64,000 nt of DNA, from contig NC_079170.1 of the NCBI RefSeq assembly GCF_947568905.1, positions 38,254,001 through 38,318,000 on the forward strand. Direction: 5' to 3'. A program made the position numbers and the translations under genes. Below are positions 25,126 to 44,153 of the stretch, one piece after another. The notes beneath the pieces were generated by a model that did not search any database, was not told the DNA's origin, and saw only the letters and a program-made list of their open reading frames with translations. Origin of the DNA: Ostrea edulis (lineage: Eukaryota). Each line of letters opens with the position of its first letter. Positions within the stretch are counted from its first letter, which is position 1.

Positions 25126-25432
25126 AGTAGTATAACGCCTCCCGATAGGGGGTTCAACTGAGTGCACTTTTTATGCAAATGAGGTCAAGCAAGGGCGTCT
25201 TTTGATTGGTCAAGCGGTGTCGGGGTCAACGGAGTGCACTAGGACGGGGTCAACCCCAGCAGGGGTTGTAGGAGCCGGTGAATAGGTTGGCCTATGGCCG
25301 CTGGTCTATGATGCGGTACTTTCGCTTTGAGTTCCTGCTATTTTTCTGAAAATAAAATCCAGTGAAATCCTGTGTATTAAATCTAAAAGAATAACACAAG
25401 GTTTTAAGTTGACATGTTTATTAAAGAACAAT
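25126..25432 (+). repeat. Left terminal inverted repeat (307 bp)
   Basis: Compared base by base with the reverse complement of 45058-45364; no mismatch seen. Confidence 0.97.
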
Positions 25433-25481
25433 TTAATTAATTTAGAGTGTTATTGACGTTGTGAAAAAACCTGCTTTTCTA

Positions 25482-25504
25482 TGACGTCACAATAAGTATA
25501 TAAA
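25482..25504 (+). promoter_or_regulatory. PolB promoter: CRE/ATF palindrome plus TATA box
   Basis: TGACGTCA at 25482-25489 and TATATAAA at 25497-25504; ATG at 25540. Confidence 0.6.
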
Positions 25505-25539
25505 CGCAATACACAATTCGCGTTATCACTTTCGACATC

Positions 25540-28500: not shown

Positions 28501-29499
28501 CGCAGTCTCACTGGCACCTGGGTGACCACCGAACTTCACAAAGCATTAGATCTAGGCTATCGTCTCGACCGCATTTACGAAGTTTGGCATTTTGAGAAAA
28601 CCAGTGACCACTTATTTCGAGCGTATATCAACACCTTTTTGAAAATTAAACAAGAAGCTTCCGGATTCCCCGAGGATTGTCAAACAGCCCAACAGCAGCA
28701 ACATTACATTGAGGAAATTCAGCAACGAGAAGGCATTGCCATGAACCCGGCAGACATCCAGAAAAATCCTGTCCGAAGAACCATTGCCAAACTCTTTTTA
28801 AATTGCTTGTGGGGAAAATTTGCTCAACGATTACAATTACCCAAATCCCTGTATCTCACGGAAGAAGAAGAATTACAACAGAAATTACAAGATGCCACTT
28901 TAGAAGTCAAAGGCATCGAACTCTTAGAAAATCGTGAACGCCCCGAATGTGGTATGATGCTGATCAATTATCAGGAGAAAGAAGAATTTTTAGAAGACTG
29001 TCCCTTTGGAAACGTGGTGCTGGCGTGTTTTACAACAGCTCATGCTCGTTTACATTTGTACGAGACGTTACAGCCTTTGGGAGAGCGTGTCTTATACTTT
29101 GACACGGATAGTATCATCTATCAGCACGACGAGACCCAGTTCAATCCGACCATTATCAACAGTTTAGGTGGCTGGACCGATGAATTGGGTGGAGATCGTA
29201 TCATCAAGTACATGTCGGGCGGGCCCAAAAATTATGCATACGAGACCCAGGGGGAAAAATCTGTCTGCAAAGTCAAAGGATTGACACTCAATTATCGTGC
29301 CTCTAGAGTCGTGTCTCTCGATACGTTGGAAAAAATGTTAAAAGGAGAAGAAGAAGAAGTCCATGTCCGTTATCCGCACTTTATTCAACGAACCCGCCAA
29401 CATGATGTGCGAACCATTCCTCTGGTGAAGAAATACCGCATGGTGTATGATAAACGTCAACGTATTCATGACTATGACACGCTGCCTTACGGGTATTAA
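25540..29499 (+). pseudogene. pPolB: Protein-primed family B DNA polymerase interrupted by one in-frame TGA at 28036-28038
   Basis: ORFs 25540-28038 and 28072-29499 are in the same frame. Motifs: OTU-like DSLCL...HYD; Exo I YYDFEC; Exo II HNFKGYD; Exo III YCISDV; Vsr-like GCYWHGC; YGGRT; DVCSLYP; KLFLNCLWGK; YFDTDS; PKNY. Confidence 0.96.
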
Positions 29500-29534
29500 A
29501 AAGGATATGCTAGAGAAAACCATCAGTCGGCAAA

Positions 29535-30065
29535 ATGACGGACTACGAATCACTACATAACCCGGGTACACCACGTTATGCTCTACTGTCAGATCGAGTA
29601 GCGTCGTTTGAAAATGCTCCCGAACACTTGCAGAAGCTATTACCTACCATTGCAGAAGCGGGATACTTTTACAAAGGGTACGGGGATAACACGTGCTGTT
29701 TTTATTGCAACTTTGGACTTCACCATTGGGGAGCTGTCGACAATCCTTGGATACAACATGCTTATTGGTATCCTCACTGTCCTTACCTGAAGTGTAATAA
29801 GGGTAAACAATGGGTACGTCAAATGTTCGACGCCGTTAGCCGAATGCGAGACACGGGGAAGAATTGGGGAGACTTGTCTGTAGACAGTGTGGAGAATCCG
29901 GCTACGACGACGGAGAAATGTCATCTGTGTTTAGAACGAGACTTGAGAATAGCTTTTTTACCTTGTGGTCATTTATGTACTTGTGCTATATGTGCTACGG
30001 GACTGAAATAATGTCCTATTTGTAGACATAGTGTTGAGCAAGCTGTACGTATTTTTATTTGTTAA
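29535..30065 (+). pseudogene. iap: IAP-like BIR plus RING protein; RING truncated by in-frame TAA at 30009-30011
   Basis: Exact BIR zinc motif CX2CX16HX6C; RING CHLC...PCGHLCTCAIC, and after the stop the frame continues CPICRHSVEQAVRIFIC to TAA at 30063-30065. Confidence 0.92.
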
Positions 30066-30105
30066 TAAATATGTATGATCCCATGAACTTGTGTCATTTA
30101 TCAAG

Positions 30106-30744
30106 ATGTATACCTACGAGACACTTGAGCCTTTTCAGTTGAAACATGAATTTACCATGACGGTGGCTGGACCCTCTAAATCGGGTAAAACAGAATTTGT
30201 GAAGCAACTGGTACAAAATACGCAGTGGATTGCACCGCCTCCCGAAAAGATAGTATGGTGTTATCGAGAATGGCAGTCCGCGTACGAATCCTTACAGGAC
30301 AAGGTCACTTTTATCCGCAATATACCTCAAGACGATGAGCAGATAGTGGCGGATCTCAGTACGTGTCATCTACTCATTTTTGATGATATGATGGGAGGTA
30401 AAGCCATCGAATCGATTGTCGACTGGTTTACGCGCAAAGCGCATCATCGAAATACCAGTGTCATTTATATCACACAAAATCTGTTTGATCGAGCAGTACA
30501 ACATCGTACCATCAGTCTGAATGCTCACTATCTTGTGCTGTTTAAAAATCCTCGAGATAAATCACAGATTGGGGTGTTAAGTCGGCAATTACAAATGCCG
30601 CATTTACTTCCAGCCTATGAGGACGCCACCCGTGTACCTCACGGGTATTTACTAGTGGACTTGAGTCCTCAGACGTCGGACGATTTAAGATTAAGAAGTC
30701 AACTCTTTACCAACTTGGCTGTGCACATGCCCCCGAGAGTATAA
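30106..30744 (+). CDS. ATP: Genome packaging ATPase (A32/FtsK-like)
   Basis: Walker A GPSKSGKT, Walker B LLIFDDM, then HHRNTSVIYITQN; first in-frame ATG at 30106 (track starts at GTG 30091). Confidence 0.95.
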   Translation: MYTYETLEPFQLKHEFTMTVAGPSKSGKTEFVKQLVQNTQWIAPPPEKIVWCYREWQSAYESLQDKVTFIRNIPQDDEQIVADLSTCHLLIFDDMMGGKAIESIVDWFTRKAHHRNTSVIYITQNLFDRAVQHRTISLNAHYLVLFKNPRDKSQIGVLSRQLQMPHLLPAYEDATRVPHGYLLVDLSPQTSDDLRLRSQLFTNLAVHMPPRV

Positions 30745-30793
30745 ATAATGTCACATCATGGGCAGGTGTATCATTCGAAAGACAGTCTTCACC

Positions 30794-31666
30794 ATGGGTA
30801 GACCTTCCGCGAAGAGTAAATTAGTCAAAACGTTACGCCGTTTACAACGGGAACGGGATCCCGTTCAACGGAGCCATCTCATTGAATTAGGACGTAGAGC
30901 CTTACTCAACTGGTTTGCGATGGGAGCTCGAAATTTATTGCGAGGCGTCTTACCAGGCAATAAAATCACTCAGCGGTTCATTCAATCCCATCGCCAAGAC
31001 TTGAGTGTCATTGCCGATAAGAAGTCCAATGAAGAAGAGCGTAAAAAAGCCATTTTGAAACGAGGAGGCGCTGGATTCTTAGGAGGGACCATTATCCGTC
31101 ATTTATTCAAATGGGAAACAGGTCGTAAGCCCCGTGGGGGACAACCCAAGAAAACCAAGAAACCACGGGCTAAGAAAGCTAAAAAATCACCTCAGAGAAT
31201 TCCTAAACTCATTATTCGCTTACCTAAGAAGACACCTAAGAAGTCCCCTAAGAAGTCCCCTAAGAAGACACCTCTCAGGATGAAGAATCCGTTTCCCAAT
31301 TGGGCTCCAAAGAAAACCCCTCTCATTGTGAAGATGCCGTTTCCCAAAGCCACTCCCCCCAAGGTCACTAAAACGTTAGCCAATCTGAAAGCCGGATTAG
31401 CTCAAAAGAAAATGGAACGACCCATGCATGGGCCTATAGGAAGTTCCAGAACCAGTGATACTGCTCTACCGAGTTTTGCTCATACCTTTGGAAGCATGAA
31501 ATTTCAACCCTTAACCACCTCAACACCGGTTCAGGTGCAAAAGAAATATAAATGTAAATTTTGCCCTCTGGTCTTCAATGCGAGAGAGAACCGCAATCGT
31601 CACGAAGAGACCGTCCATCACAAGCGTTTTGATCCTAAACATCCGAGTGCCATTGTCCTGGACTAG
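30794..31666 (+). CDS. Basic core-like protein with SPKK/TPKK repeats and a C-terminal C2H2 finger
   Basis: TATAAATA at 30740-30747 favours ATG 30794 (accATGg) over 30758; KKTPKKSPKKSPKKTP; YKCKFC...F......RHEETVH. Confidence 0.8.
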   Translation: MGRPSAKSKLVKTLRRLQRERDPVQRSHLIELGRRALLNWFAMGARNLLRGVLPGNKITQRFIQSHRQDLSVIADKKSNEEERKKAILKRGGAGFLGGTIIRHLFKWETGRKPRGGQPKKTKKPRAKKAKKSPQRIPKLIIRLPKKTPKKSPKKSPKKTPLRMKNPFPNWAPKKTPLIVKMPFPKATPPKVTKTLANLKAGLAQKKMERPMHGPIGSSRTSDTALPSFAHTFGSMKFQPLTTSTPVQVQKKYKCKFCPLVFNARENRNRHEETVHHKRFDPKHPSAIVLD

Positions 31667-31706
31667 GTATAAAAAGGAGGGGGAAGGGGCCCCACCCTTC
31701 ATTACC

Positions 31707-32036
31707 ATGGCTCATACGAAGAAGTGTGAATGTCGATTACGACCTCATTTACCGCTCTTGCAGACGTTAGCGGCTCCTCACTATTCCAGCAAATTAAAGA
31801 CAGAGGTGTTGAAACATTGTTCCAATGACTGCATTTTAAAGATTTGTGAGATTGTGTACAATCTATTAAAAGGGGTGATTCCTCTCAATCCTACTCAGAA
31901 GCGACAACTGGGTCGAAAGAAACACATCTTAAGACGCTTAGTCCGCCCTCAACCTGTGAAAAAACGACGAGGTATACTCATTCACCAAAAAGGATTGGGT
32001 TCGTTTGTGTGTGGCAAGATTTGTAAGAAATCATGA
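31707..32036 (+). CDS. Conserved Polinton small basic protein (109 aa)
   Basis: TATAAAAA at 31668-31675, ATG 31707; ICEIVYNLLKGVIPL...ILRRL...ILIHQKGLG pattern seen in Polinton core-like proteins (recognised by eye). Confidence 0.8.
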   Translation: MAHTKKCECRLRPHLPLLQTLAAPHYSSKLKTEVLKHCSNDCILKICEIVYNLLKGVIPLNPTQKRQLGRKKHILRRLVRPQPVKKRRGILIHQKGLGSFVCGKICKKS

Positions 32037-32803
32037 GTCGAAAAATGGTGTTGGTACCGGAAGCGATGCTCAACGAATTAAAAGGCAAATTACCTAAACC
32101 TCCCGAATTTACCTCGACTATTGGTTTACGCAGTGATTTGGACGAGATTGAACATCGAGATGATTTAACCGAGAAAGAAAAAGTGGGGTTGTACGGTCAT
32201 CAACTTCATCGCTATCGTCAATATTTACAACAAGCTCGACATCCCACCACAGCGACTCGACCCTCCCCAACCAGTGCAACCAGTGGCGCCTCACCACCCT
32301 CAGCCGCCTCAACACCCGATGACTTGGAGGAACAGATTATCAAAAGCGTCAATAAACCGGGTCAAAAGAAAGCAGGTTTATTACTCGATCATCTCAAGAA
32401 ATCCAAAGTGGTGACTTGGAATAAAGAAAGAGAAATCAGCTATAGAGGACGCAGGGTTCCCGATTCCAATATCGTGGATTTAATCACCGAGTCCCAGAGA
32501 CAAAAACCTTTGAAACATCGTGAACCCCCTGCAGGGTTACAGCAATTTGCTCAAGCGTTAAAAGAAACGAATGCCCCTAAAGGATATTTGACCAATCGGG
32601 ATGTTATAAAAGCCATGGACAAGCCCGGAAAAATCAGTACTCCTAAACCTATAGAAGAAGAAGATGAGAGCGGATTTCAAGAAATCTCTGGTTTTGACCA
32701 ATCTTTCTATGAAACTCCCAGACGAATGATGACCCCTAAAAATATCAGGGAGGCTGGTAAAAAGACATCACGTGAAATTGGAAAATGGTTAAATCTACCA
32801 TGA
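32033..32803 (+). CDS. Conserved uncharacterised Polinton protein upstream of integrase (256 aa)
   Basis: W.....I...G..VPDSNIVDL...G...F..AL...N.P motif pattern typical of the Polinton gene preceding INT. Confidence 0.8.
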   Translation: MSRKMVLVPEAMLNELKGKLPKPPEFTSTIGLRSDLDEIEHRDDLTEKEKVGLYGHQLHRYRQYLQQARHPTTATRPSPTSATSGASPPSAASTPDDLEEQIIKSVNKPGQKKAGLLLDHLKKSKVVTWNKEREISYRGRRVPDSNIVDLITESQRQKPLKHREPPAGLQQFAQALKETNAPKGYLTNRDVIKAMDKPGKISTPKPIEEEDESGFQEISGFDQSFYETPRRMMTPKNIREAGKKTSREIGKWLNLP

Positions 32804-33870
32804 AACCAGAACAGATCTTACAGCGACTGTATTACGATCCCAAGACAGGTTATGGGGGAGTCCAGGCGTTGTATCGTCAAGTGCGTCAATTAGGACACAA
32901 GATTACCCTGTCTCAAATTCGAGAATGGGTGAAAGCTCAAGATACCTATACCTTGCATAAACCGATACGGAGGAAATTCAAGCGACGACAAACACGCGTG
33001 ACGGATATGGATGAACAATGGCAATTAGATTTAGCCGATGTCTCCAGCTTGAAACAAGACAATAATGGGTATACGTTTTTATTATGTGCCATTGACGTGC
33101 TGTCTAAATATGCCTGGGTCGTGCCTTTAAAACAGAAAACGGGGAAAGAAATGATACGAGGCTTACGACGGATTTTTCGAGAGGGACGTCGCCCCGTGCG
33201 CATTCAGTCCGATCAAGGAAAAGAATTTACCAATAAAGAATTTCGTCAAGCCTTCAAATCCATTCATTTCTTTACGACCCGTAATGCCGAAACCAAAGCC
33301 AGTATTGTGGAACGTTTTCAACGCACGCTGAAAGCACGCATGTGGCGGTATTTTACACGTCATAAAACACGACGGTATGTCGATGTCTTGGCCGATCTGA
33401 TGTATGGTTACAATCATACCTATCATCGCAGTATCCGGCGAGCTCCTGCTCAAGTCAATGCCAAGAATGTCTTGACCGTATGGAAAACCTTGTATGGAAA
33501 ACAGAGTGCCGATACCACGAGTCGCTTGCAAGTGGGGGATCGTGTAAGCATTAGTAAAGCTAAACGTACGTTTGAAAAAGGATATTTACCGAATTGGACC
33601 AAAGAACTGTTTACCATCTCTAGAAAAGTGCCAGGACGAAACGTCTATCGCATTCAAGATGATCACGGGGAAGAATTAGAAGGAACCTTTTACGAGAAGG
33701 AATTACAACAAGTGATTAAAGACGACGATGTCTATGAAGTGGAGGAAATCTTAGGGTATAAAAAGCGGCGTGTGGGAAAAAAAGTCATTTCAGAAGTCAA
33801 AGTGCGTTGGAAAGGATATCCTCCCAGTTTTGATTCATGGATTCCGCAAGCGGATCTCATTCGACCATGA
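32800..33870 (+). CDS. INT: Retroviral-like DDE integrase with C-terminal chromodomain
   Basis: WQLDLAD, IQSDQGKEF, ASIVERFQRTLK (D,D,E); chromodomain YEVEEIL...VRWKGYPPSFDSWIP. Start at ATG 32800 (ATGA overlap) or 32785. Confidence 0.96.
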   Translation: MKPEQILQRLYYDPKTGYGGVQALYRQVRQLGHKITLSQIREWVKAQDTYTLHKPIRRKFKRRQTRVTDMDEQWQLDLADVSSLKQDNNGYTFLLCAIDVLSKYAWVVPLKQKTGKEMIRGLRRIFREGRRPVRIQSDQGKEFTNKEFRQAFKSIHFFTTRNAETKASIVERFQRTLKARMWRYFTRHKTRRYVDVLADLMYGYNHTYHRSIRRAPAQVNAKNVLTVWKTLYGKQSADTTSRLQVGDRVSISKAKRTFEKGYLPNWTKELFTISRKVPGRNVYRIQDDHGEELEGTFYEKELQQVIKDDDVYEVEEILGYKKRRVGKKVISEVKVRWKGYPPSFDSWIPQADLIRP

Positions 33871-34124
33871 CCACCCAGTGGACTTTCTTGGGTGAAAAAG
33901 TCCCCCGAGCAGAAATTGTGTATTTTGCACAATTATTCCTGTGTTTAACCATCATTATCACCTCGGTCGTGATGTTAGCCTTAGGCGATCCCAATCGCGA
34001 TTTTTGGATGGTGACCTTAAGTTCTCTCGTAGGCTACGTCATGCCTAGTCCACAAATGACGTTAGCGAGCCCGAGTATAAAACAGGAGTCCCCTTCACCT
34101 GAGAGATCAGTTCACCATGGCTAA
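33867..34124 (+). CDS. Small predicted two-TM membrane protein (85 aa)
   Basis: ATG overlaps the integrase TGA; hydrophobic IVYFAQLFLCLTIIITSVVMLAL and FWMVTLSSLVGYVMP. Confidence 0.7.
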   Translation: MTTQWTFLGEKVPRAEIVYFAQLFLCLTIIITSVVMLALGDPNRDFWMVTLSSLVGYVMPSPQMTLASPSIKQESPSPERSVHHG

Positions 34125-34572
34125 GCCACAGTACGCCTGGAAACAAGAGGGGGAGAAAAGTACCTGGTTCTGGGATAAGCAGATGTGTTTGATGCATTGT
34201 AAACAACACAAAGTGTTAGATCAACCGGTGTACTTGTACAAACGGATACTGATACCTCACGGATGGTCAGCCTTTATCATGAAGACTAAATATCAAGAGT
34301 TTCGCTGGAAAGTCAAAGCCTTCTGGGGATTGATGGGACGACAAGACGAATCCGATTGGACCTTAAATGATAGTCCTTGGTTTGACAATTCCGAGGACTG
34401 TCTCCGACATTTCAAAGACATGATCAATGAAGGTTATGATGTAGCCGATTGCTGGGGAACCCGACACTATCTGGTGATGCGACGACGCTTAGTCCCGAGA
34501 CGAACACTAGAGTTGGAAGACTCCTTTCTACAATCGTTGACTTGCGGTGGTGGTCGCGATCAAGAAGAATGA
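34117..34572 (+). CDS. Hypothetical protein (151 aa, Trp-rich)
   Basis: ORF with TATAAAA at 34076-34082, accATGg start and AATAAA at 34610-34615; no family recognised. Confidence 0.7.
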   Translation: MAKPQYAWKQEGEKSTWFWDKQMCLMHCKQHKVLDQPVYLYKRILIPHGWSAFIMKTKYQEFRWKVKAFWGLMGRQDESDWTLNDSPWFDNSEDCLRHFKDMINEGYDVADCWGTRHYLVMRRRLVPRRTLELEDSFLQSLTCGGGRDQEE

Positions 34573-34687
34573 CATGTAAAATTGTGTATTAACATTATGT
34601 TGTATGTTCAATAAAATATGAAAATGTTCATTGTGTTATGAGTATAAATAGAGAAGGAAACAGAGACAGGGTCTCATTTAAGACATC

Positions 34688-35683
34688 ATGGCTGGAGGAG
34701 AAGGGTTTTACATGACTCTGTTGAGTGATGGGTCGATGGAATCGTTTCCGACGAATACGACGGCTCAATTTAAAACGTTATTGCCACACACCATGGACTT
34801 AACGGATGGAGAATGGGAAGTCGGATTGACCGAAATGATGTACTCGGCCAACTTACAAAACGTATCGGATAGCGAGGCTTATGTGGACGTTCTCATTCCA
34901 GATCCGTATACGCAATATGTCCAAGATCCCAACACTTATAAATGGGAAAGATTTAAGACACAGAATATGGGTAAAGTCACGATAGCCGGGTGTGAGGTGG
35001 TGGTCCCCTGGGATCTCACGCCATGGTCCCATCTCTTTGCGGGAGGGGATAGTTTATTTCCCTTCGATATCATTCGCATTCACTTCCGACCCGGAGCTTA
35101 TACACAACCTTTGGCGTTAATCAATGAAATCAACGCAGCCTTAAGGAGAACCCTGTGGAAAGTATGGAGGGAGTTAGGGAATCCTAACGACGAGGGGAAC
35201 AACCAGCTCTTAGTGTATCACCCCGAGTACGATCGTGTCGAGTATCAGTTTAATGGGAAAGCACTGAGATCCACCCCCATGTGCATTCGTTTCCCTACGC
35301 CCTTAGCGTACAAGCTAGGTCTGGATAGTGACAAAATGATCCTGGGCGATGAAACCATGACGAAATGGATCAACGTGAATTACTTGGGGAACACGGCCAT
35401 GGATGTCTACGACAATCTGAAAGCCATGTATGTGTATTGTGACATTGTGGATCCTCAAGTGGTGGGCACCAACAAATTGAAATTATTGAGAGTCGTCCCC
35501 TGTACGGGTCAATACGACGATCGACAACAAGCCCGTTGGGAACCGATTCGAGCCGAATATTTGAAACTGAGTAAGAAATATTTCGATACCATTGAGGTAC
35601 ACATCATGAATTCTTTAGGGCGTCCTATGGGCTTTTTAAATGGGCGCTCCTTAGTCAAACTTCATTTCCGCAAAGTGTATTGA
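34688..35683 (+). CDS. PX: Minor capsid protein (penton-like, single jelly roll)
   Basis: N-terminal FYMTLLSD...FKTLLP..MDL..EWEVGLTE and C-terminal YVYCDIV...VG......LLRVVP...DTIEVHI....G...F..G....LHF motifs; TATAAATA at 34643. Confidence 0.9.
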   Translation: MAGGEGFYMTLLSDGSMESFPTNTTAQFKTLLPHTMDLTDGEWEVGLTEMMYSANLQNVSDSEAYVDVLIPDPYTQYVQDPNTYKWERFKTQNMGKVTIAGCEVVVPWDLTPWSHLFAGGDSLFPFDIIRIHFRPGAYTQPLALINEINAALRRTLWKVWRELGNPNDEGNNQLLVYHPEYDRVEYQFNGKALRSTPMCIRFPTPLAYKLGLDSDKMILGDETMTKWINVNYLGNTAMDVYDNLKAMYVYCDIVDPQVVGTNKLKLLRVVPCTGQYDDRQQARWEPIRAEYLKLSKKYFDTIEVHIMNSLGRPMGFLNGRSLVKLHFRKVY

Positions 35684-35686
35684 AAG

Positions 35687-35830
35687 ATGAAGTACCATCG
35701 AGGAGTCAGACGCCAGAAAGGACACGGAATCTGGTTTCTCATTCCATGGATTGCCAATGCCATTGTGGGTCAAGCGGGCCAAGGAAAGAAGAGAAAGAGA
35801 CGGCGTAAAAAGTATAAAAAGCGGGTGTAA
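35687..35830 (+). CDS. 47-aa basic core/pX-like peptide (not in the ORF track)
   Basis: MKYHRGVRRQKGHGIWFLIPWIANAIVGQAGQGKKRKRRRKKYKKRV; starts 4 nt after the penton stop; N-terminus matches the next ORF. Confidence 0.75.
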   Translation: MKYHRGVRRQKGHGIWFLIPWIANAIVGQAGQGKKRKRRRKKYKKRV

Positions 35831-35857
35831 CCCCTAACGAAGTTCATTTACATCAAG

Positions 35858-36553
35858 ATGCACTACCATAAAGGTTTAATACGGCAGCAGGGTCACGGGC
35901 TTGGAGCCCTGTTGGGAATAGCCAGCAAAGTGGCGGGTCCCCTGATCAGCGGATTATTAGGTGGAGCCCCCGCACAACAACAACAACAGCGTCCTGTCTA
36001 TCAAGAGAGATATTATGATTACGACCGCCCTTATCGCCCTTATCGCTCTTATCAGAGGAGACGACGTAGAAGCCATCCAACAGAAGAATATGATCCAGAA
36101 TCTGAAAAGCAGAAGGGAAAAGGATTTTTCACCGATTTACTCAAATCGGGGGCTAAAAGTGCCTTAAAGGCTGCTGCTAAAACAGGGATGGATGTGTTAG
36201 ATAATAAACGATCCCTCAAAGACGCTCTCAAGACACACGGTGTCCAAGCCCTGAAAGAGACAGCAGGGTATGCCCGTAGGCGAAGATCTCGAAAAGCCCC
36301 ATCCAAACGAGGAAGAAAATCGCGCACAGGAATACTCAGGAAGCCTGGAACCACGACCGTCAAAAGAAAACAGGTGGGAAAACAGGTGGGAATACAGGAA
36401 GGAAAAGGATTTGTTAAAAGAAAACAACGTATCTTAGCTCGGGGAGGGCCTCATAAGAGACCTAGGAAGCAACCTAGGAAGCGATCTAGGAAGGGAGGTA
36501 GGAAGCTCGTGAAAAGGGGTAAGCCAAAACGCTCTCTGGATATTTTCGACTGA
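35858..36553 (+). CDS. Basic core / membrane-penetration-like precursor with repeated QxGxG motifs (231 aa)
   Basis: RQQGHG-LGALLG, KQKGKG-FFTDLL and IQEGKG-FVK; amphipathic segments after the motifs; Arg/Lys-rich tail; TATAAAAA at 35813. Confidence 0.8.
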   Translation: MHYHKGLIRQQGHGLGALLGIASKVAGPLISGLLGGAPAQQQQQRPVYQERYYDYDRPYRPYRSYQRRRRRSHPTEEYDPESEKQKGKGFFTDLLKSGAKSALKAAAKTGMDVLDNKRSLKDALKTHGVQALKETAGYARRRRSRKAPSKRGRKSRTGILRKPGTTTVKRKQVGKQVGIQEGKGFVKRKQRILARGGPHKRPRKQPRKRSRKGGRKLVKRGKPKRSLDIFD

Positions 36554-36632
36554 GAACCCTATAAAAAGGGGGTGAGAAGGACACCAGAACACATTTGATC
36601 CCAGTTCACGCTGAGTAACACATCGTTCCAAT

Positions 36633-38036
36633 ATGATGCACAGAGAATCTTGCGCTTGTGGCACCGACAGTTTAGAACTGTTTAAAGTGCCCCCGACCAA
36701 CGTCACTTTAGAAGATTCGAAATGGATGGAATATTACCCCATTTCCAGTACCCTCAACTCGGATACGGCTCCGATTGAATTTGAAATCAAAGGACAAGGA
36801 GATGAATATCTGGATTTATCCCAAACTTATCTCCAGATGGTCTGTAAATTCACCAAAGCAGACGGGACGAATCTCGCAGGAGGCAATTCGACCTCGACCC
36901 CCGTGAATAACATTCTCCATTCCTTGTTCAGTGAAATCGATGTCAGTCTCAATGGAAAAGTCATTACCCCGGGGACGGATACTTATCCCTACAAAGCGTA
37001 TCTGGAGAAATTGTTGTCTTATGCACCCAAGACTCTGGAAACCCAGATGAGAGCCTGTAGCTTGTGGGAAAAAGATACGGCAGGACATATGGATGAGGTC
37101 AAATTAGAAGCTCTGACTCAACCTCCTGTGGAATTTGCAGTAGCGCTTGATAAAGTCAACATCGCGGCCGTCATCCCGACTCCCGTGTATCCGGATGATT
37201 CCAAGAATGTAGGGTTGAGAAAACGTCACGAGAAGATTACAGACAGTAAGGAGATCGTGTTGATGGATCGATTACATCTGGATTTGTTTGAGCAAGAGAA
37301 ATGTCTCCCTAATGGCTTGGATGTCCGTCTCAGATTCAATCGCGCTCGACCCCAGTTCTACATGATGACCGCTGCCGGGAGTAGTGGGAAAGTGGTCATT
37401 CAAAGTATGATCTTGTGGGTGAGGAAAGTCAAACCTGTGCCGAGTATCATTAATCTCATCAATCAGCAACTGAGTACTCAAACGGCGAAATATCCATTGA
37501 GACGAGTGGAAGTGAAAACCTTCACCATTCCTAGTGGCACCCAGTCTAAAATCACCGATCATCTGTTTCAAGGACAGATGCCTAAACTGATCGTGTTGGG
37601 TTTTGTGGACAATGCGGCTTTTAATGGGGATAATACCAGAAACCCCTTTCATTTCCAAAATGAGAGAGTCAAGAAATTAGAAATCAGTATCAATGGAGAA
37701 ATGATGGAAACCCGCCCTTTGGAACCTAATTTCACCGACGATCAGTACCTGAGATCGTATTTGAGTCTGTACAAAGGCTTGGGAAAATTAGGCCAGGACT
37801 GGGCTCCGGACATTACCCTGGAAGAGTATAAAAACGGTTACACCCTCTGGTGTGTGGATTTCACGAAAGATCAAGAAGCCCAGACGGATAAATTTCATCT
37901 CATACAGACGGGGAACTTGAGAGTGGAAGTGCAATTTGCCGCCAACGTGGCCAGGACCTTAAACTGTGTGGTGTATGCCGTGTTCGACAATCTGCTAGAA
38001 ATCAACAAACAACGAGAAGTCAGTATCGATTACTAA
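36633..38036 (+). CDS. PY: Major capsid protein (double jelly roll)
   Basis: PIEFEI...[48 protein letters not shown] and GNLRVEVQF motifs; TATAAAAA at 36560. Confidence 0.95.
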
Positions 38037-38043
38037 GAGAGAG

Positions 38044-38541
38044 ATGGATACTCAGCAATTGAGAGATGTTTTACAACGAGATTTAGGACCGGCGTTTGCC
38101 GGTGTGTATCCTCGAGATGTCATACCTGAGCTGTTACCTCATCACAAAGCCATCGTGGTGAATACAGACCCTCACGATCGCCCTGGAGCGCATTGGGTCT
38201 GTTTGTATTTGAGTAGCCCTACCGTCGAATATTTTGATTCTTACGGATTACCTCCCAGCCATAAAGACATCCAAGACTTTATTCAACGCCACGGAGAGAC
38301 TTGGATTCATAACACCCATTGTTATCAAGATTTGAATACGGATGTCTGTGGACAATACTGTGTGTATTTTTTACATCAACGCCATCGCCATAGAAGCACC
38401 GTACGAGAATGGTTACTTCCCTGGAAAGGCACGGCCTTACAACGCGATCGTTTTGTGGCGGATTGGTTTAAAGAGACCTTCCGAAAACCGAGAACCCATC
38501 AAGGACAAACTTGTCAATGTCAAAGACTGAATGTATTGTAA
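38044..38541 (+). CDS. PRO: Adenain-like cysteine maturation protease
   Basis: NTD...PGAHW, YFDSYG, YQ.....CGQYC catalytic His/Asp/Gln/Cys pattern. Confidence 0.95.
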   Translation: MDTQQLRDVLQRDLGPAFAGVYPRDVIPELLPHHKAIVVNTDPHDRPGAHWVCLYLSSPTVEYFDSYGLPPSHKDIQDFIQRHGETWIHNTHCYQDLNTDVCGQYCVYFLHQRHRHRSTVREWLLPWKGTALQRDRFVADWFKETFRKPRTHQGQTCQCQRLNVL

Positions 38542-38632
38542 ACTATGTTATTGTTATTGTTCATAGTTGGAGTTTAATAAAACGTTGGGAAAAAAAAATA
38601 TTTTTTTTTTCTTGTCATTGTAATCAACCATG

Positions 38633-38673
38633 TCTTTTCAAAAAGAATGGGTAGCCCTGAAAAGGGCTGTTTT
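38633..38673 (-). terminator. Histone-type 3' stem-loop plus purine-rich downstream element
   Basis: Minus strand: AAAAC AGCCCT TTTC AGGGCT ACCCA TTCTTTTT GAAAAGA, 84 nt after the stop of ORF 38753-39052. Confidence 0.75.
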
Positions 38674-38752
38674 CTTTCTCTCTCTGTTCTTGGTCTTTTC
38701 TCTTCTTCTCTCTTCTTCTCTCTCTTCTCTTCTTCTCTTCTCTGTCCCCCTC

Positions 38753-39052
38753 TCACTGTCTGTTCTTCTTCTTCTTCTTTCTTCTCTTCTTTTTCTGCTC
38801 CTCCGGGGGTTGCTCGTGGTCAAACACAAACACAGGCAACCACCCGTGTTTAAAAAACAATCTCCCCGGAGGCCGCTGCACCACTTCTAACTCTGCGTCC
38901 CAGTTTTCCTCAGGCGGGGGCAGATCCTGGCTCATGGGCGGTGGGGGAAGAGCCTCCCGTGAGGCCGGCGGGGCAATCTCTTCGTCCCAATCCTCCTCAC
39001 ATTTGTAACAATAATCATTCACCGTAGGGTCTGATCCTACTCTGCGACTCAT
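38753..39052 (-). CDS. Hypothetical 99-aa acidic/Pro-rich protein with a basic C-terminal NLS-like tail
   Basis: ATG-started ORF with upstream shared promoter motif and downstream stem-loop; EEDWDEE and EENWDAE repeats; KKKRRKKKKK. Confidence 0.65.
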   Translation of the reverse strand: MSRRVGSDPTVNDYCYKCEEDWDEEIAPPASREALPPPPMSQDLPPPEENWDAELEVVQRPPGRLFFKHGWLPVFVFDHEQPPEEQKKKRRKKKKKNRQ

Positions 39053-39104
39053 CGTTCTGGTTCCTTTAAAAAATCGGAATGCCCGATTTTTGACGTTGCG
39101 CTCG

Positions 39105-39144
39105 TTTAAAAAGGCGAGAGCGCGGACGTCCTCGAAAACATCCC
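39105..39144 (-). promoter_or_regulatory. Shared promoter motif, copy 1, plus TATA-like TTTAAA
   Basis: AGCGCGGACGTCCTCGAAAACATCCC at 39119-39144; near-identical copy at 41151-41176. Confidence 0.65.
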
Positions 39145-39159
39145 CCTACCTCAGATGGC

Positions 39160-39197
39160 TGACGTCATGTTGATGACTCATCAAAAAACACTATATA
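39160..39197 (+). promoter_or_regulatory. CRE plus AP-1 plus TATA promoter of the Cys-rich gene
   Basis: TGACGTCA 39160-39167, TGACTCA 39174-39180, TATATA 39192-39197; ATG 39230. Confidence 0.55.
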
Positions 39198-39229
39198 CAT
39201 AGGTCACTTGTTACCATTTTTTCTCAATC

Positions 39230-39631
39230 ATGTCGTTTGAACGGTACGTGGATGGTGAGAAAGATGTACTAATGTGTGGGTATTGCCGAGGACCTTGGAG
39301 AACTTGTGGGTGTTTTCATTATAAAAAAGAAAACATCCTGGCCAAACATAAGTGGATAGAGTATATGGCAGAGCTGAATTATTGTCCCTTTGTCTATAAA
39401 TGTTGTGGTCACACTAGAGAACCCTGGCTACCGTGTAAGTGTCCGCAGCATTGTACCATCAACCCTGAAGATGAAATAGCTCATAAGGACTGTACCTGTG
39501 AGATCTGTCAGGAGTTTAGAGAGCGCTGGACTCAGAGAAAGTTTAAACCCCACCTGTTTCAACATTGTCCTTACAGTCAAGAACCCCGGTCAACGTGTAC
39601 CTGTGAGACCTGTCAACCAGCATGTCGGTGA
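39230..39631 (+). CDS. Cys/His-rich putative metal-binding protein (133 aa)
   Basis: Many CxxC/CxC motifs; internal repeat CTCEICQ / CTCETCQ. Confidence 0.7.
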   Translation: MSFERYVDGEKDVLMCGYCRGPWRTCGCFHYKKENILAKHKWIEYMAELNYCPFVYKCCGHTREPWLPCKCPQHCTINPEDEIAHKDCTCEICQEFRERWTQRKFKPHLFQHCPYSQEPRSTCTCETCQPACR

Positions 39632-40119
39632 CGGATCTACGAGGAGATGTATTATCTCTACCTTGGGTGGATGGTATTGTACAACAATGTAACTGTTTAA
39701 CGGTGAAACCTCATGGATTAAGTCAACGTATTGCCGACCGATTTCCTTGGGCTAATCTGTATGCGACCCGACAACCTTTAGGACGAAGAAATTTAGCTAT
39801 AGAAGCGGATCGAGGAATACCGGGTACTGTGTGTATTATGCCTCATTCTTCTCATCCTGATGTAATCTGTTTGTTAGCGCAATGGGATTACGGGAGAGGC
39901 ACTCAACGCTTACCCCTGTATGCCGATACCCCCGAACAACGTGAACTTTGGTTTCAACAATGTTTACAGGAATTAGGCACTTTGTCTTACCAGACTTTAG
40001 CGTTTCCTTATCGTATTGGATGTGGATTAGGCGGAGGCAATTGGACTCATTATAGACAATGGATTTGTGACTTTGCTTATCAGTATCATAAACATGTTTA
40101 CATTGTCAAGAAAATGTAA
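39622..40119 (+). CDS. Macrodomain protein (TARG1/DarG/SCO6735-like class), putative ADP-ribosyl hydrolase
   Basis: GDVL...IVQQCNC...GL...I...FP; VICLLAQ..YG; FPYRIGCGLGGGNW diphosphate-binding loop. Confidence 0.85.
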   Translation: MSVTDLRGDVLSLPWVDGIVQQCNCLTVKPHGLSQRIADRFPWANLYATRQPLGRRNLAIEADRGIPGTVCIMPHSSHPDVICLLAQWDYGRGTQRLPLYADTPEQRELWFQQCLQELGTLSYQTLAFPYRIGCGLGGGNWTHYRQWICDFAYQYHKHVYIVKKM

Positions 40120-40211
40120 CTTTATTATAGCTTTATTCTAGCTATTACTTGTGTTAATAAAACTTTTTAAAAACAAACTTGTGTGTTTCTTGATTTTTGC
40201 CATAAAAAGTG

Positions 40212-40250
40212 TCTTTTCAAAAAAGTTGGTGGCCCTGAAAAGGGCCGTTT
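40212..40250 (-). terminator. Canonical histone mRNA 3' stem-loop plus purine-rich downstream element
   Basis: Minus strand: AAAC GGCCCT TTTC AGGGCC ACCAA CTTTTTT GAAAAGA, 23 nt after the RING-gene stop. Confidence 0.85.
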
Positions 40251-40269
40251 GGTCCTAAGGACCGACTTT

Positions 40270-41058
40270 TCAATCCCTGGTTCCGGTAAACCGGCATAAC
40301 GGGCACCGTCCCCGGGTGTGTCGCCGCTCCTGTAACTCTTCCACGCACGAGCAGCAAGCTGGGCGCTGCCCACATCCCCTACACGTAATTCCAGAGTGTA
40401 CCCTGTCTTGCCAGCAGACAGGACACTTAAACCAGATAGGAACCGCCCTATCTGCCCAGCCAGGGACAGTCATAGGGTGGTTCCTCGGGGGATGAGTTGC
40501 CACCGGTGCGTGGGTTGGTCTCGGTGGCGGAGTCCTCCCTGCAAACCGGATGGTAGGTGGTGGGGGTCTTGCAGGGGCTGCTGGTCTCGGTGGTGATGCC
40601 GTGTCTGCCACCAACAGCGACGGACTCTGGGCTGGACTGGGAGGTGGTGCGGGGGACGGTGACCTCGGTGAATACTCCACCGGTGACGCTGGTGAGTCGC
40701 TCATCGGCACCGGGCTGTATTCCTCAGGTGCCGATGGGATCGGTGGTGGTGGTGTTGTAGGCGTCGCCGGGGAGTAAGGTGGTGGTGGTGAGGGTGGCTG
40801 TGGGGCCCGTCGGCGCGGTCTCGTGGCCGTGGAGATTCGAGCGGTGCGGCGGCGGGGTGCCCTCCCTTCATACTCGGCCCGCACCCGGCAGATGATCTCA
40901 CGGACCCCACTCTGGTCGAAAGGGGAGAAGGTGCTCAGGTCGTTCTCAGAACGCACGACCCAATTCTCCCCTACCCGTTCCTCAGCCACCACTACCAGCC
41001 GGTACCGGAATCCAGGCAAGGTCTGGAAATTGTAGAGCGGGTCTCTTCTTGTAGCCAT
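40270..41058 (-). CDS. Pro-rich protein with a C-terminal RING finger (C4C4-like), 262 aa
   Basis: ATG at 41058 (track start 41109 is GTG); CPVC-x10-C-x2-C-x5-CCSC-x13-CPLCR; PPPPY and YSP repeats. Confidence 0.8.
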   Translation of the reverse strand: MATRRDPLYNFQTLPGFRYRLVVVAEERVGENWVVRSENDLSTFSPFDQSGVREIICRVRAEYEGRAPRRRTARISTATRPRRRAPQPPSPPPPYSPATPTTPPPPIPSAPEEYSPVPMSDSPASPVEYSPRSPSPAPPPSPAQSPSLLVADTASPPRPAAPARPPPPTIRFAGRTPPPRPTHAPVATHPPRNHPMTVPGWADRAVPIWFKCPVCWQDRVHSGITCRGCGQRPACCSCVEELQERRHTRGRCPLCRFTGTRD

Positions 41059-41137
41059 TCTTCTTTCTTCTTTCTTCTTTAAAATCCTTCTACAACTGTG
41101 CTGGATCACCAGTGAAGCGAACTGGCGAGTGCGCCGG

Positions 41138-41176
41138 TATATATCAGGAAAGCGCGGACCTCCTCGAAAACATCCC
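41138..41176 (-). promoter_or_regulatory. Shared promoter motif, copy 2, plus TATATA
   Basis: AGCGCGGACCTCCTCGAAAACATCCC at 41151-41176 (25/26 identical to 39119-39144); TATATA at 41138-41143. Confidence 0.65.
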
Positions 41177-41611
41177 TCGCTTCGGAGACGAAGCCAAGAT
41201 GGTGGCCGTCAAAATGGCGGATTTGTGCTTTCGAGTAGAGAGTTTTTTCTCATTGTCTTTTTCTAGACATTCGATATCTGTGCAAGGTAGATTTAATCTG
41301 ATAGATTCTGAGACGGCGAATGCGTTAAACTTATTTTTATTTTGCTACGTCGCATAGTTTTCAAAGAAACAGCGGTTAAAGAGGTCGAGTCGAGGTTCAA
41401 TGTTTCTTCACCACCTCTTTAAAAATTTATTTCTCGACCATGTACATCCCTAAAAACATCTCATAAGGTCTATTCGATAGAAAACACCTTATTTGATTCG
41501 ATTTTCACTCTACCTTTAGGATTTTCTGGATTCCTCAACAAATAAACCCTTCTCTGAGAGACTCAACCAAACACAGCTTTCGTGTAAACAATTTTATTCA
41601 TGTCACATATT

Positions 41612-41830
41612 TCAAATACATAACTCCCACACACAACACCAATGCACATGTCTTTTTAAAATAGGGTCCAACATTTTTTCCATTTCTCGAATCCTGCGTT
41701 GAAATCGATATCGATCAGCGGCTACAGTCATCCAGATACTTGTCCGGTCTTCTTCGGGTAACCGATACACTTCATTATGATCCAGATTAAAAGTCACACG
41801 TTTAACTTGACGTACATCTCTCGAAGACAT
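41612..41830 (-). CDS. DP71L/ICP34.5/GADD34-like PP1 regulatory subunit (72 aa)
   Basis: ATG 41830: MSSRDVRQVKRVTFNLDHNEVYRLPEEDRTSIWMTVAADRYRFQRRIREMEKMLDPIL; RVxF motif plus the W...A.DR.RF.RRI...E..L signature. Confidence 0.85.
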   Translation of the reverse strand: MSSRDVRQVKRVTFNLDHNEVYRLPEEDRTSIWMTVAADRYRFQRRIREMEKMLDPILKRHVHWCCVWELCI

Positions 41831-42099
41831 CGTAGTCTGATTTTCTCGATTTCTGCTCTGTCTGTGGGTCGAATTCGTTTCAATTCCTGGCCCATTAAAT
41901 GAATCAATACTAAGGCTTGCGGGGTGATCCGGTTCTCGATCAAATACTGACAGAGACATGGATAGTCCTTTAAGCTGATGGGAAATAATTCTTCTCGCAT
42001 ATAGTGTAACACAAATTCAATCTGCCAAGAATGAATGTCTGTGAGATAATCCAATACATAAGTTATCGCTTTCTCTGTGATGTGGTCACTGCTGGCCAT
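41794..42099 (-). CDS. Unknown helical protein, tandem paralogue 4 (101 aa)
   Basis: ATG 42099; shares FPxxLxxY and LxxIxxxGxExKxxxP....I..I...L motifs with its neighbours. Confidence 0.75.
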   Translation of the reverse strand: MASSDHITEKAITYVLDYLTDIHSWQIEFVLHYMREELFPISLKDYPCLCQYLIENRITPQALVLIHLMGQELKRIRPTDRAEIEKIRLRCLREMYVKLNV

Positions 42100-42433
42100 C
42101 CTCCGGGAATAAATGAAATGAATTAAGTTCTTCACACTTTATGTATACTTCTCGAAGCCAGTCCTTGGTGATACTTTCAATCTCAACGGTTTTTTCAGGC
42201 ATGCGTTTCTTGAATTCCTCCCCCAGGACATAAATTAACATCAATCCCGCATCGTTATAGAGATTGATGTATATCCGGTTCCGTAGATCTGTATATTCGT
42301 CCAGAGTCATTGGAAACACCCCCGCTATCAGAAAATTTTTAACGAATTGAAACACCGTATCGTCTTGCATTTTCTCGACCCATTCTAATGCATGGTTATG
42401 CGCTTTTTCTGCGATGTTGTCACTGCTGGCCAT
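42086..42433 (-). CDS. Unknown helical protein, tandem paralogue 3 (115 aa)
   Basis: Start region GGAGGATGGCCAGCAGTGAC identical to that of the 42099 ORF; shared protein motifs. Confidence 0.8.
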   Translation of the reverse strand: MASSDNIAEKAHNHALEWVEKMQDDTVFQFVKNFLIAGVFPMTLDEYTDLRNRIYINLYNDAGLMLIYVLGEEFKKRMPEKTVEIESITKDWLREVYIKCEELNSFHLFPEDGQQ

Positions 42434-42462
42434 CCTCCACGAATAAAGGAAAAGAAAAACGG

Positions 42463-42816
42463 TTAGGTTTTTTTATACACCTTTTCCAACCAGTGATCGG
42501 TAATCGCTACAATCGCCCCAGTCTTCTCAGGTTCCCGTCGTCTAAATTCTTGCTCCATGGTATAATTCATGATCAATCCAGACTCTCTGTTCAGGTTGCC
42601 GGCTATATGCTTGCAAACGCCGGAATATTCATATAAGGTCATAGGAAATTCCCAAAAGATCAACAACTTCATAGCGAATTTATATCTCAACGGCTGTTTT
42701 TCTTTCCAGTCCTTGATACACTGTAATGCAGCGCTACGAGCGTTGTTCACCGATTCTTTGTAGTCCTTGAAATGCTGTAATACAGCGGTAAGAACGTTGT
42801 TGGTCAATTCAGCCAT
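42463..42816 (-). CDS. Unknown helical protein, tandem paralogue 2 (117 aa)
   Basis: FPMTLYEY, EQEFRRREPEKT and HWLEKVY align with paralogue 3. Confidence 0.75.
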   Translation of the reverse strand: MAELTNNVLTAVLQHFKDYKESVNNARSAALQCIKDWKEKQPLRYKFAMKLLIFWEFPMTLYEYSGVCKHIAGNLNRESGLIMNYTMEQEFRRREPEKTGAIVAITDHWLEKVYKKT

Positions 42817-42853
42817 GATGATCAAAATGAAAAAATTCCAAAACGTTCTTGTT

Positions 42854-43186
42854 TTATAACAGGGCAGCCATTCCTTTCATACGAATCAGTTCCACGAATC
42901 CTTTTTGTAAACAATCGCGTAAGATCCGATCAATGTCACTCATCTGGTCTGGAAGATTCTGTTTCAATTCCTCAGCATACAAATAAATCATGAGTAAACG
43001 TCCCGTATTGGTATTCTCCGCTAATGAATCAGCAATCCGTTGAAAACTATGTACATTTCTGACCTCCGGTGACATCTGTTGTACAAATTGACGAGCATTT
43101 TGAATGTGAGGATTATGTAAGGCCATGTTCATACATTGTAGTACATAACTATATCCATTTATTCTCGTAGTAGCACTGCCGCCCAT
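42854..43186 (-). CDS. Unknown helical protein, tandem paralogue 1 (110 aa)
   Basis: LLMIYLYAEELKQNLP...IDRILRDCL aligns with the family; TATAAATA on the minus strand at 43217-43224 favours ATG 43186 over 43213. Confidence 0.7.
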   Translation of the reverse strand: MGGSATTRINGYSYVLQCMNMALHNPHIQNARQFVQQMSPEVRNVHSFQRIADSLAENTNTGRLLMIYLYAEELKQNLPDQMSDIDRILRDCLQKGFVELIRMKGMAALL

Positions 43187-43216
43187 AGTAAATAACGAAC
43201 GTTCAGAAAACATCTG

Positions 43217-43290
43217 TATTTATAGGTAAAGGTTATGCATCACGTGATCAAACACCTGCACCACGTGATCAAACACCTGTACGTCAGCTG
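43217..43290. promoter_or_regulatory. Divergent promoter with duplicated E-box module
   Basis: CACGTGATCAAACACCTG at 43241-43258 and 43262-43279, ACGTCA and CAGCTG at 43281-43290, between divergent ATGs at 43186 and 43326. Confidence 0.6.
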
Positions 43291-43325
43291 GTTTTTCTAC
43301 AGTCATTCTTGTCTGACCTTCAGTC

Positions 43326-43832
43326 ATGGATACACGGAGAATTTTAAGAGCGAGACGCTGCCGCCAGGGAATACAATCAGTGGAGAATTTAACCATAGTG
43401 GAAGATTATGTAGACGAGATGGAGATCTGGGACAATTTAGTACAGAGATGTCGCCATCGATTACGCTGGGGGCGATCTAAAAATTGGTGTTTTGACTATG
43501 TATTGCGGTCACATGAAACAGTGGAGGATATTTGCCTACGATTAAGTGACATGTACCTGAAAAATTCCCCCCTCATACAGTACATGATTTACCAGTTTTA
43601 CACGTTATTGAACGGCACTCAAAAAGTATCGGGATTTATTCGACTGGAGAAACCACGTTACCGAAGAAGTGTATGGGTATTGTTTTGGGATGCACACTGG
43701 ATGTGGGAAACCGTCGAAGAGATACGTTTCCCCGGGAGAAGAGCTCGACAATTAGTACAACACATTATATCCGAAGATCATGACTTACACGTGTATATAG
43801 AAGAACCTGCGTATGAAGCCGGCCATTTTTAA
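43326..43832 (+). CDS. Protein with a degenerate CRESS-virus Rep (HUH) endonuclease-like domain (168 aa)
   Basis: SKNWCF ... IQYMIYQ ... NGTQKVSGFIRLEKPR ... V..LF.DAHW follows the circo/nanovirus Rep N-domain pattern; HUH and YxxK catalytic residues are absent. Confidence 0.62.
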   Translation: MDTRRILRARRCRQGIQSVENLTIVEDYVDEMEIWDNLVQRCRHRLRWGRSKNWCFDYVLRSHETVEDICLRLSDMYLKNSPLIQYMIYQFYTLLNGTQKVSGFIRLEKPRYRRSVWVLFWDAHWMWETVEEIRFPGRRARQLVQHIISEDHDLHVYIEEPAYEAGHF

Positions 43833-43847
43833 AAATAAAAACTTCAT

Positions 43848-43871
43848 GCACAGCCCTTTTTAGGGCTACTT
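43848..43871 (+). terminator. Possible histone-type stem-loop
   Basis: AGCCCT TTTT AGGGCT AC at 43852-43869, 19 nt after the Rep-like stop; AATAAA at 43835 precedes it; no clear downstream element. Confidence 0.5.
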
Positions 43872-43920
43872 TAAACATCAATATAAGTTCCATTCCACTA
43901 AAGTCAATGTGTACCAATGT

Positions 43921-43992
43921 GCACTAGCACGCGCTGGTCGCGAGAAACCGGCTTTTCAAGTTCAATTAGGGCACTAGCACGCGCTGGTCGCG
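43921..43992. repeat. 22-bp direct repeat, 50-bp period, upstream of the zinc-knuckle gene
   Basis: GCACTAGCACGCGCTGGTCGCG at 43921-43942 and 43971-43992. Confidence 0.9.
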
Positions 43993-44153
43993 CGATGTTC
44001 TAGCTGAAACCGGTTTTTCCAGAAAAAGATGATGCAACCACGTGCTCCCCACGTGCCCCCCCACGAGACAGAATAGTCTAGACATTTTGCTGGCTATAAA
44101 AGCGGAGCCCCAGTGTCAGTCCTCATTCGATCTTCAATCACCTTCCAGAAGAC

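Follow-up and report, generated by a model that had tools for sequence, protein, structure and literature searches.

An intact gene for a 165-aa macrodomain lies within a 20.2-kb Polinton/Maverick element of Ostrea edulis, in the window analysed here (the whole stretch of DNA, 64,000 nucleotides). Profile and fold searches support placing the predicted protein in the ALC1 class of macrodomains and, judged by its residues, it belongs to a virus-associated sister subfamily of its own with a Gln at the catalytic position (Gln-type). The reading that we favour, at a probability of roughly 55%, is that the protein is a hydrolase that removes ADP-ribose placed by host PARPs on T/U bases or acidic residues, and protection of the Polinton from these host enzymes is a plausible role for it. 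Both macrodomain-bearing viruses and Polintons that carry anti-host genes are already known, and the pairing described here does not amount to a new kind of system.

A Polinton with a macrodomain gene

The sequence-only reading had placed the macrodomain ORF in a Polinton, a context borne out by terminal inverted repeats, a 6-bp target duplication and genes for PolB, a packaging ATPase and an integrase. The inverted arms are 308 nt long and 100% complementary, and since one base of each arm belongs to the target duplication, the element spans 25126-45364, with the termini AGTAGT...ACTACT. The long terminal inverted repeats, AG...CT ends, 6-bp target duplication and size within 15-25 kb are those of a Polinton, as is the presence of both a protein-primed PolB and a retroviral-type integrase (PF03175, PF00665), and the GC content of the element is higher than that of its flanks. 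The features are as follows:

25120..25125, +, target-site duplication GTCATC, left copy (flank sequence)
25126..45364, no strand, Polinton/Maverick element of 20,239 bp (terminal repeats, ends, target duplication, core genes)
25126..25432, +, left terminal inverted repeat (inverted-repeat search)
25540..29499, +, protein-primed family B polymerase (PolB), ORFs 25540-28038 and 28231-29499 (PF03175, E 5e-25 and 3e-27)
29535..30011, +, IAP-like gene with BIR and RING (PF00653, E 9e-16; PF13920, E 1e-7)
30106..30744, +, A32-type packaging ATPase (PF04665, E 5e-6)
32785..33870, +, retroviral-type integrase (rve) with chromodomain (PF00665, E 2e-11; PF00385, E 4e-8)
36633..38036, +, putative major capsid protein, F54H12.2-like, 467 aa (97% identity to an Ostrea edulis protein)
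38044..38541, +, adenovirus-type maturation protease (PF00770, E 3e-4, slightly short of the cut-off)
39160..39197, +, candidate Pol II promoter: TGACGTCA at 39160, TGACTCA at 39174, TATATA at 39192 (consensus matches only)
39230..39631, +, Cys-rich ORF, 133 aa, its last 10 nt shared with the macrodomain ORF
39622..40119, +, macrodomain gene, Gln-type ALC1-class, 165 aa, intact (ORF, profile and fold searches)
40156..40161, +, AATAAA, 37 nt past the macrodomain stop
41612..41959, -, PP1-binding ORF, GADD34/ICP34.5-type (PF10488, E 7e-6, at the cut-off)
41794..43213, -, four tandem related helical ORFs, Bcl-2-like, 101-119 aa (alignment; weak profile and fold matches)
45058..45364, -, right terminal inverted repeat (inverted-repeat search)
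45365..45370, +, target-site duplication GTCATC, right copy (flank sequence)

The double jelly-roll capsid is assigned from the names of its homologues alone, the name F54H12.2-like being one that we take to be a marker of the Polinton capsid protein. PolB is split into two ORFs and therefore broken in the window copy, and this split (28038-28231) occurs despite the identical terminal repeats of the same copy. One of the four Bcl-2-like ORFs matched PF00452 (E 0.007), and for the one that was modelled (pLDDT 73) all the Foldseek matches listed were of the Bcl-2 family, yet with E values of at least 0.44. The PP1-binding ORF resembles the GADD34/ICP34.5 antagonists of eIF2-alpha shut-off. Elsewhere in the element we noted a proline-rich ORF (40270-41058, -) ending in a Cys pattern that looks RING-like by eye and has no match in Pfam, an ORF (43326-43832, +) with a weak match to Viral_Rep (HUH) that falls below the cut-off (E 0.015), and a protein with two zinc knuckles of the CCHC type (44345-44977, +). 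Outside it, inverted arms of ~220 nt that are 91-93% alike and 26.6 kb apart (22718-22936 and 49539-49761) flank the Polinton and may be a small repeat present in duplicate or belong to an enclosing element, and a reverse transcriptase ORF (54633-56411, +; PF00078, E 2e-34) belongs to a separate retroelement.

The macrodomain ORF runs from ATG to TAA with zero internal stops, and every motif that the sequence-only reading had listed is in place (G8-D9, Q22-C23-N24-C25, A86-Q87 and I132-G-C-G-L-G-G-G-N-W141). It is not a chance ORF, because a homologue search returned 52 of 71 candidates at E<=0.001 (best, 376 bits) and the AlphaFold2 model described below is confident. Its third-position GC is 0.30, versus 0.39-0.52 in the core genes. 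The overlapping Cys-rich ORF matched no family in Pfam, NCBIfam, PADLOC or the homologue searches, and BLASTP of stored proteins found none in which it is fused to a macrodomain.

Both ORFs lie downstream of the candidate promoter. There are two full copies of the TGACGTCA palindrome in the 20-kb element, one (25482-25502) lying 58 nt ahead of the PolB start and the other 70 nt ahead of the Cys-rich/macrodomain pair, each accompanied by a TATA ~40 nt ahead of the ATG, so that the CRE and TATA are laid out alike at both. The palindrome and TATA are thus a possible early promoter shared by PolB and the Cys-rich/macrodomain pair. No TATA lies within 120 nt of the macrodomain start, and seven ATGs separate it from the TATA of the cassette; if the TATAAA at 39395 served instead, a single upstream ORF of two codons would remain, but such hexamers are found 28 times in the element.

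Fold, class and active site

The sequence-only reading had named the lack of a predicted macro fold as evidence against itself; the AlphaFold2 model built from the 47-row alignment instead predicts such a fold (alpha/beta/alpha), with a pLDDT of 93.7 and a pTM of 0.90, matched in Foldseek at E 9e-8 (prob 1.00) and in VIA-align at Z 17.3 over 148 residues. The PF01661 match that it had proposed as a check did not appear at E<=0.1, nor did the ORF match any other family in Pfam, NCBIfam or PADLOC, while PHROG 335 matched it at E 4e-9. Since PF01661 matches 6 of 47 aligned homologues and leaves the window ORF without a match, we conclude that this profile under-covers the subfamily.

Searches of the PDB led to the ALC1 class. 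A single-sequence search returned BT1257 (E 0.012) and SCO6735 only, and the 47- and 135-row profiles found BT1257, DarG, SCO6735, TARG1 and Poa1p, with 13 of 13 sequences at E<=0.01 for the larger profile being of this class (E 7e-10 for BT1257/SCO6735 versus 5e-5 for Poa1p). Foldseek ranked Poa1p first, together with TARG1 and DarG as best matches of the model, whereas VIA-align gave Z scores of 17.3 for BT1257 (rmsd 2.8, 148 aligned), 16.8 for DarG, 16.4 for Poa1p, 15.9 for TARG1, 15.7 for SCO6735 and 14.6 for ALC1, compared to 14.0 or less for the alphavirus MacroD-type and coronavirus domains. The 18 top VIA rows were ALC1-like rather than MacroD, and an ESM Atlas feature search returned Macro clusters at 0.95-0.96 that were 40-83% viral. 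The earlier TARG1/DarG-like label was therefore right about the ALC1-like (TARG1/DarG/SCO6735) class and wrong about the TARG1/DarG type, as the catalytic Lys and TARG1 Asp125 are missing.

We numbered SCO6735 via a chain offset of 20, which reproduces the numbering of PMC9411070, where Gln85 is treated as the counterpart of the catalytic lysines Lys84 (TARG1) and Lys80 (DarG) and the Gln is described as common to SCO6735 and ALC1 homologues. In that work the Q85A mutation abolished SCO6735 activity on DNA and protein substrates and N27S and G128E strongly reduced it, while Val/Ile25 was termed SCO6735-specific (PMC9411070). Asn27, Gln85, Gly126 and Gly128 correspond to N24, Q87, G133 and G135 of the Polinton protein, which also has the adenine-binding Asp of the superfamily (D9) and the diphosphate loop G133-C-G135-L-G-G-G139. 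Val25, Lys34 and Lys89 are changed to Q22, H31 and G91; the latter two take the place of the DNA-positioning lysines by register, with a Lys or an Arg at the next residue (92) in 104 of the 135 family rows. Loop 1 reads CLTVKPHG rather than the DLGGWGKG of SCO6735. Position 137, which aligns with TARG1 Asp125, is Gly in the window copy, Ala in 126 of the 135 rows and Asp in one.

The pocket is strongly conserved, with Q87 present in 135/135 family rows and Q22, C25 and R107 each in 134/135. Among 59 oyster-clade proteins, Q87, C25, R107 and C134 are found in all, G32 in 58, D9 in 57, G135 in 56, N24 and H31 in 54 each and G133 in 45. We considered and dropped a Zn site at C25/H31, as the CNC motif also occurs in Poa1p.

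With the Gln-type ALC1-class hydrolases SCO6735 (Streptomyces coelicolor, PDB 5e3b) and BT1257 (2fg1/2afc) the Polinton protein thus has in common the fold, the four residues just named, the IGCGLxGG loop, an Arg before helix 3 and a long loop after the Gln, the gap from Q87 to R107 being 19 residues here (family median 23) and 12-13 in the two bacterial proteins. It differs from them in its ~20% identity, in an RNLA stretch added after helix 1 and in being viral rather than bacterial. Human TARG1/OARD1 and bacterial DarG share the ALC1-like fold, and the GD motif aligns with that of DarG, but their Lys84/Lys80 is replaced by Gln and the Polinton carries no DarT partner. The protein is accordingly neither of the TARG1/DarG type nor SCO6735 proper, as it has no catalytic Lys, Val25 or loop-1 glycines, and the changes at Val25, Lys34, Lys89 and loop 1 suggest that its substrate may differ from that of SCO6735.

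Relatives, origin and retention

At E<=1e-30 the 47-row profile gathered 693 clusters (50% identity), a number that rose to 3254 at 1e-10; the labelled members are oysters and, mostly, giant viruses. Medusavirus (44% identity) and Satyrvirus (41%) macrodomains belong to the same subfamily as the Polinton protein, and the top viral fold matches were a Marseillevirus LCMAC101 UDG fusion and a nimavirus wsv206-like protein (TM 0.83 and 0.88), although these giant-virus and nimavirus carriers are viruses of 150-800 kb, unlike the 20.2-kb Polinton. A macro domain in wsv206-like proteins has been described (PMC7016691), and it has been argued that these proteins were gained more than once (PMC10871703). 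Coronavirus Mac1, alphavirus nsP3 and megalocytivirus domains also have the macro fold, but are MacroD-type, a type of viral macrodomain that has been proposed to counter antiviral PARPs and to which the characterised macrodomains of eukaryotic viruses belong in the available part of PMC7729036.

A 71-row tree was made of the window protein, three Saccostrea proteins, the representative of a C. virginica cluster and viral, environmental and unlabelled relatives, with nimavirus proteins left out and phage/plasmid macrodomains, which matched at only 25-31% among the matches listed, as outgroup. The window, Saccostrea and C. virginica proteins fell inside a 26-row clade (support 99/98) from which all 20 rows with a viral or environmental label were absent, its 21 other rows being unlabelled. 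Because this oyster clade nests in a family of mostly giant-virus labelled members, uptake of the macrodomain from the pool of genes carried by large DNA viruses is likely. The phylogeny that the sequence-only reading had proposed for finding the donor thus gave a viral affinity and no named donor, as the sister of the oyster clade was resolved neither in this tree nor in a quick 144-row tree. A host origin from TARG1 was rejected, since the Lys/Asp dyad is missing and viral relatives are nearer; a bacterial origin was also set aside, a peptide-pattern scan of 185,579 prokaryote genomes having given 2 loci of 12 stretches with a narrow pattern that leaves absence unproven.

Genomic records of the relatives were searched for viral markers. 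VLTF3 was found in 6 and an NCLDV capsid in 5 of 8 records (12 viral loci), whereas a protein-primed PolB over the cut-off was found in none of the 8, and tblastn of 18 element proteins against 94 related viral and metagenome loci detected no Polinton core genes. One of these records, filed under a Marinicaulis MAG (locus L093, bin G001) and also one of the two loci from the prokaryote scan, has giant-virus-type neighbours, with MORN, eIF5/2B and UDG genes, and since NCLDV capsid and VLTF3 genes are present in its bin, it is probably a giant virus that was sorted into a bacterial bin. A basal family member (L008, record G007) is located on a record of 185 kb in which a phage terminase, but no NCLDV marker, was found, which indicates that the family reaches tailed phages too. 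We scanned 30 of the 94 loci (longer and non-redundant, up to nine nearest ORFs each, 260 in total) and found NADAR in 3 and PARP, UDG and an AlkB-type oxygenase in 1 each, while 18 long homologues included 2 AlkB fusions and 1 Pif1 fusion, both sets of counts being without a background control. On a 13-kb viral contig (L007, 6569-11156), a WGR-PARP, a family macrodomain and NADAR lie within 5 kb, i.e. a writer and two erasers.

Polintons of at least two oyster genera have kept the macrodomain. S. cucullata has at least 18 macrodomain proteins, with representatives at 54-61%, and C. virginica has 7 named proteins in a cluster of 39. By matching contig sizes and accessions 1-2 apart, 3 of the 18 S. 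cucullata macrodomain proteins listed could be paired with the 25 capsid-like models listed, both lists being partial (XP_062602390/392 at 221,354 bp, XP_062567645/646 at 42,546 bp and XP_062569918/919 at 45,346 bp), which fits a capsid-then-macrodomain order in Saccostrea, a second genus. Pocket residues are fixed although the proteins are 45-60% alike across at least three oyster genera.

The stretch or part of it is contained in 20 of 24 listed sequencing runs (9 studies), none of them recorded as RNA. In two DNA read runs (1.38 and 1.31 Gb) the capsid gene was covered ~106-179x and 183-258x and the middle of the macrodomain gene 74-108x and 120-148x, which would correspond to many tens of Polinton copies if the genome is taken to be ~1 Gb. 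The dip in depth matches an in-frame deletion of 309 nt (39714-40022, codons 31-134) with 7 nt of microhomology, seen in 39 and 42 reads of the two runs. This deletion marks a minority of copies that are without most of the macrodomain gene, and most reads carry the intact gene.

Function of the Polinton macrodomain

How such a hydrolase might serve the Polinton can be outlined from its relatives. Strand-displacement replication exposes single strands, and an expressed element replicating in this way would give rise to single-stranded DNA, in which host mono-ADP-ribosyltransferases might tag unpaired T/dU, as well as U in transcripts or Glu/Asp on proteins. Asp9 and the two loops would then bind ADP-ribose and Asn24 would hold Gln87, which would position the distal ribose for cleavage of the bond by water, the route that has been proposed for SCO6735. 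Together with the IAP, the Bcl-2-like proteins and the PP1-binding protein, the macrodomain would form a single counter-defence set, a role that the neighbouring IAP, four Bcl-2-like and PP1-binding genes fit, and it would be helpful, not essential to every Polinton copy. Protection from host PARPs is also made plausible by relatives that lie beside NADAR, PARP or UDG. The sequence-only reading had suggested protection of element proteins or of linear, end-exposed DNA; the latter is the weaker part, because protein-primed genomes bear a terminal protein on their 5' ends, and single-stranded displacement intermediates and transcripts fit T/U-base substrates better.

We know of no oyster enzyme for U/T-base ADP-ribosylation. 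In vitro, PARP10 modifies U in RNA and dU and weakly T in ssDNA, and in the accessible text of the same study only TARG1, DarG and SCO6735 among the tested panel reversed the PARP10-made U-ADP-ribose, which MacroD enzymes failed to do (PMC13036486). PARP genes are differently expressed in resistant versus susceptible oysters (PMC6971885), showing existence and variation only. Adintoviruses (Polinton/Maverick) have been reported to encode Bcl2 and IAP homologues, and neither a macrodomain nor ADP-ribosylation is mentioned in the available text of that paper, nor 'macro' in one supplementary file, itself possibly partial (PMC8502044). A term search found no 'macro' in the main text of 2026 preprints on Polinton-like viruses, and no paper on Polinton macrodomains was found in the open literature searched, so that an earlier mention in subscription papers or Repbase is possible. 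Points that count against a base or protein hydrolase include the Gln shared with ALC1, the changes from SCO6735 at Val25, Lys34, Lys89 and loop 1, the Foldseek rank of Poa1p, the copies with the deletion and the position of the promoter.

The ALC1 macrodomain binds and is not known to cleave. The Polinton protein could likewise be a reader that binds ADP-ribose or PAR without cleaving it, or else a small-molecule enzyme that processes O-acyl-ADP-ribose or ADP-ribose-1''-phosphate as Poa1p does, considering that Gln87 is also found in ALC1 (PMC9411070; Z 14.6), that Poa1p comes first in Foldseek and has the CNC motif in common, and that loop 1 is without its usual glycines and Val25 of SCO6735 is not retained. 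Yet BT1257 and SCO6735 are the best matches by profile, position 87 of Poa1p is Thr and not Gln, and the gene stands alone and retains both Asn24 and Gln87; we regard this account as unlikely. Still more doubtful is that the protein is an active hydrolase with a housekeeping task in replication, clearing adducts of DNA-damage PARPs from replication intermediates regardless of immune state: while relatives are fused to or adjoin UDG, AlkB and Pif1, the CRE and TATA are arranged as at PolB and SCO6735 is DNA-damage inducible (PMC8120803), the gene stands among anti-apoptosis and PP1-binding genes, it has been lost in part of the copies, and the papers checked do not place the macrodomain in the core of Polintons, which indicates that replication does not need it. 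That the gene is a neutral passenger, captured cargo copied with the Polinton and now decaying, is improbable, for although a minority of copies carry the in-frame 309-nt deletion, PolB of the window copy is broken and third-position GC departs from that of the core, pocket residues stay fixed in at least three oyster genera whose proteins are only 45-60% alike, and most reads carry the intact gene.

The removal of host-PARP ADP-ribose thus stays our preferred reading, and a wider proposal can be built upon it, which we offer tentatively and hold to be a good deal less probable: oyster mono-PARPs would tag the ssDNA or RNA of the element as an antiviral measure, and the Gln-type subfamily of giant viruses, nimaviruses and Polintons would remove these marks, an animal endogenous DNA virus thereby encoding an eraser of T/U-linked ADP-ribose. 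If true, the eraser of the Polinton would be the eukaryotic mirror of the conflict between phages and DarTG. The class of the Polinton macrodomain has the capacity to remove base-linked ADP-ribose from DNA and RNA and is unstudied for an animal DNA virus, and as a small, soluble, virus-encoded protein this macrodomain would offer a bench test for an antiviral role of base-linked ADP-ribosylation in animals. It also gives access to a subfamily with hundreds of viral members, mostly missed by Pfam, and it strengthens the view of Polintons as viruses that live under immune pressure.
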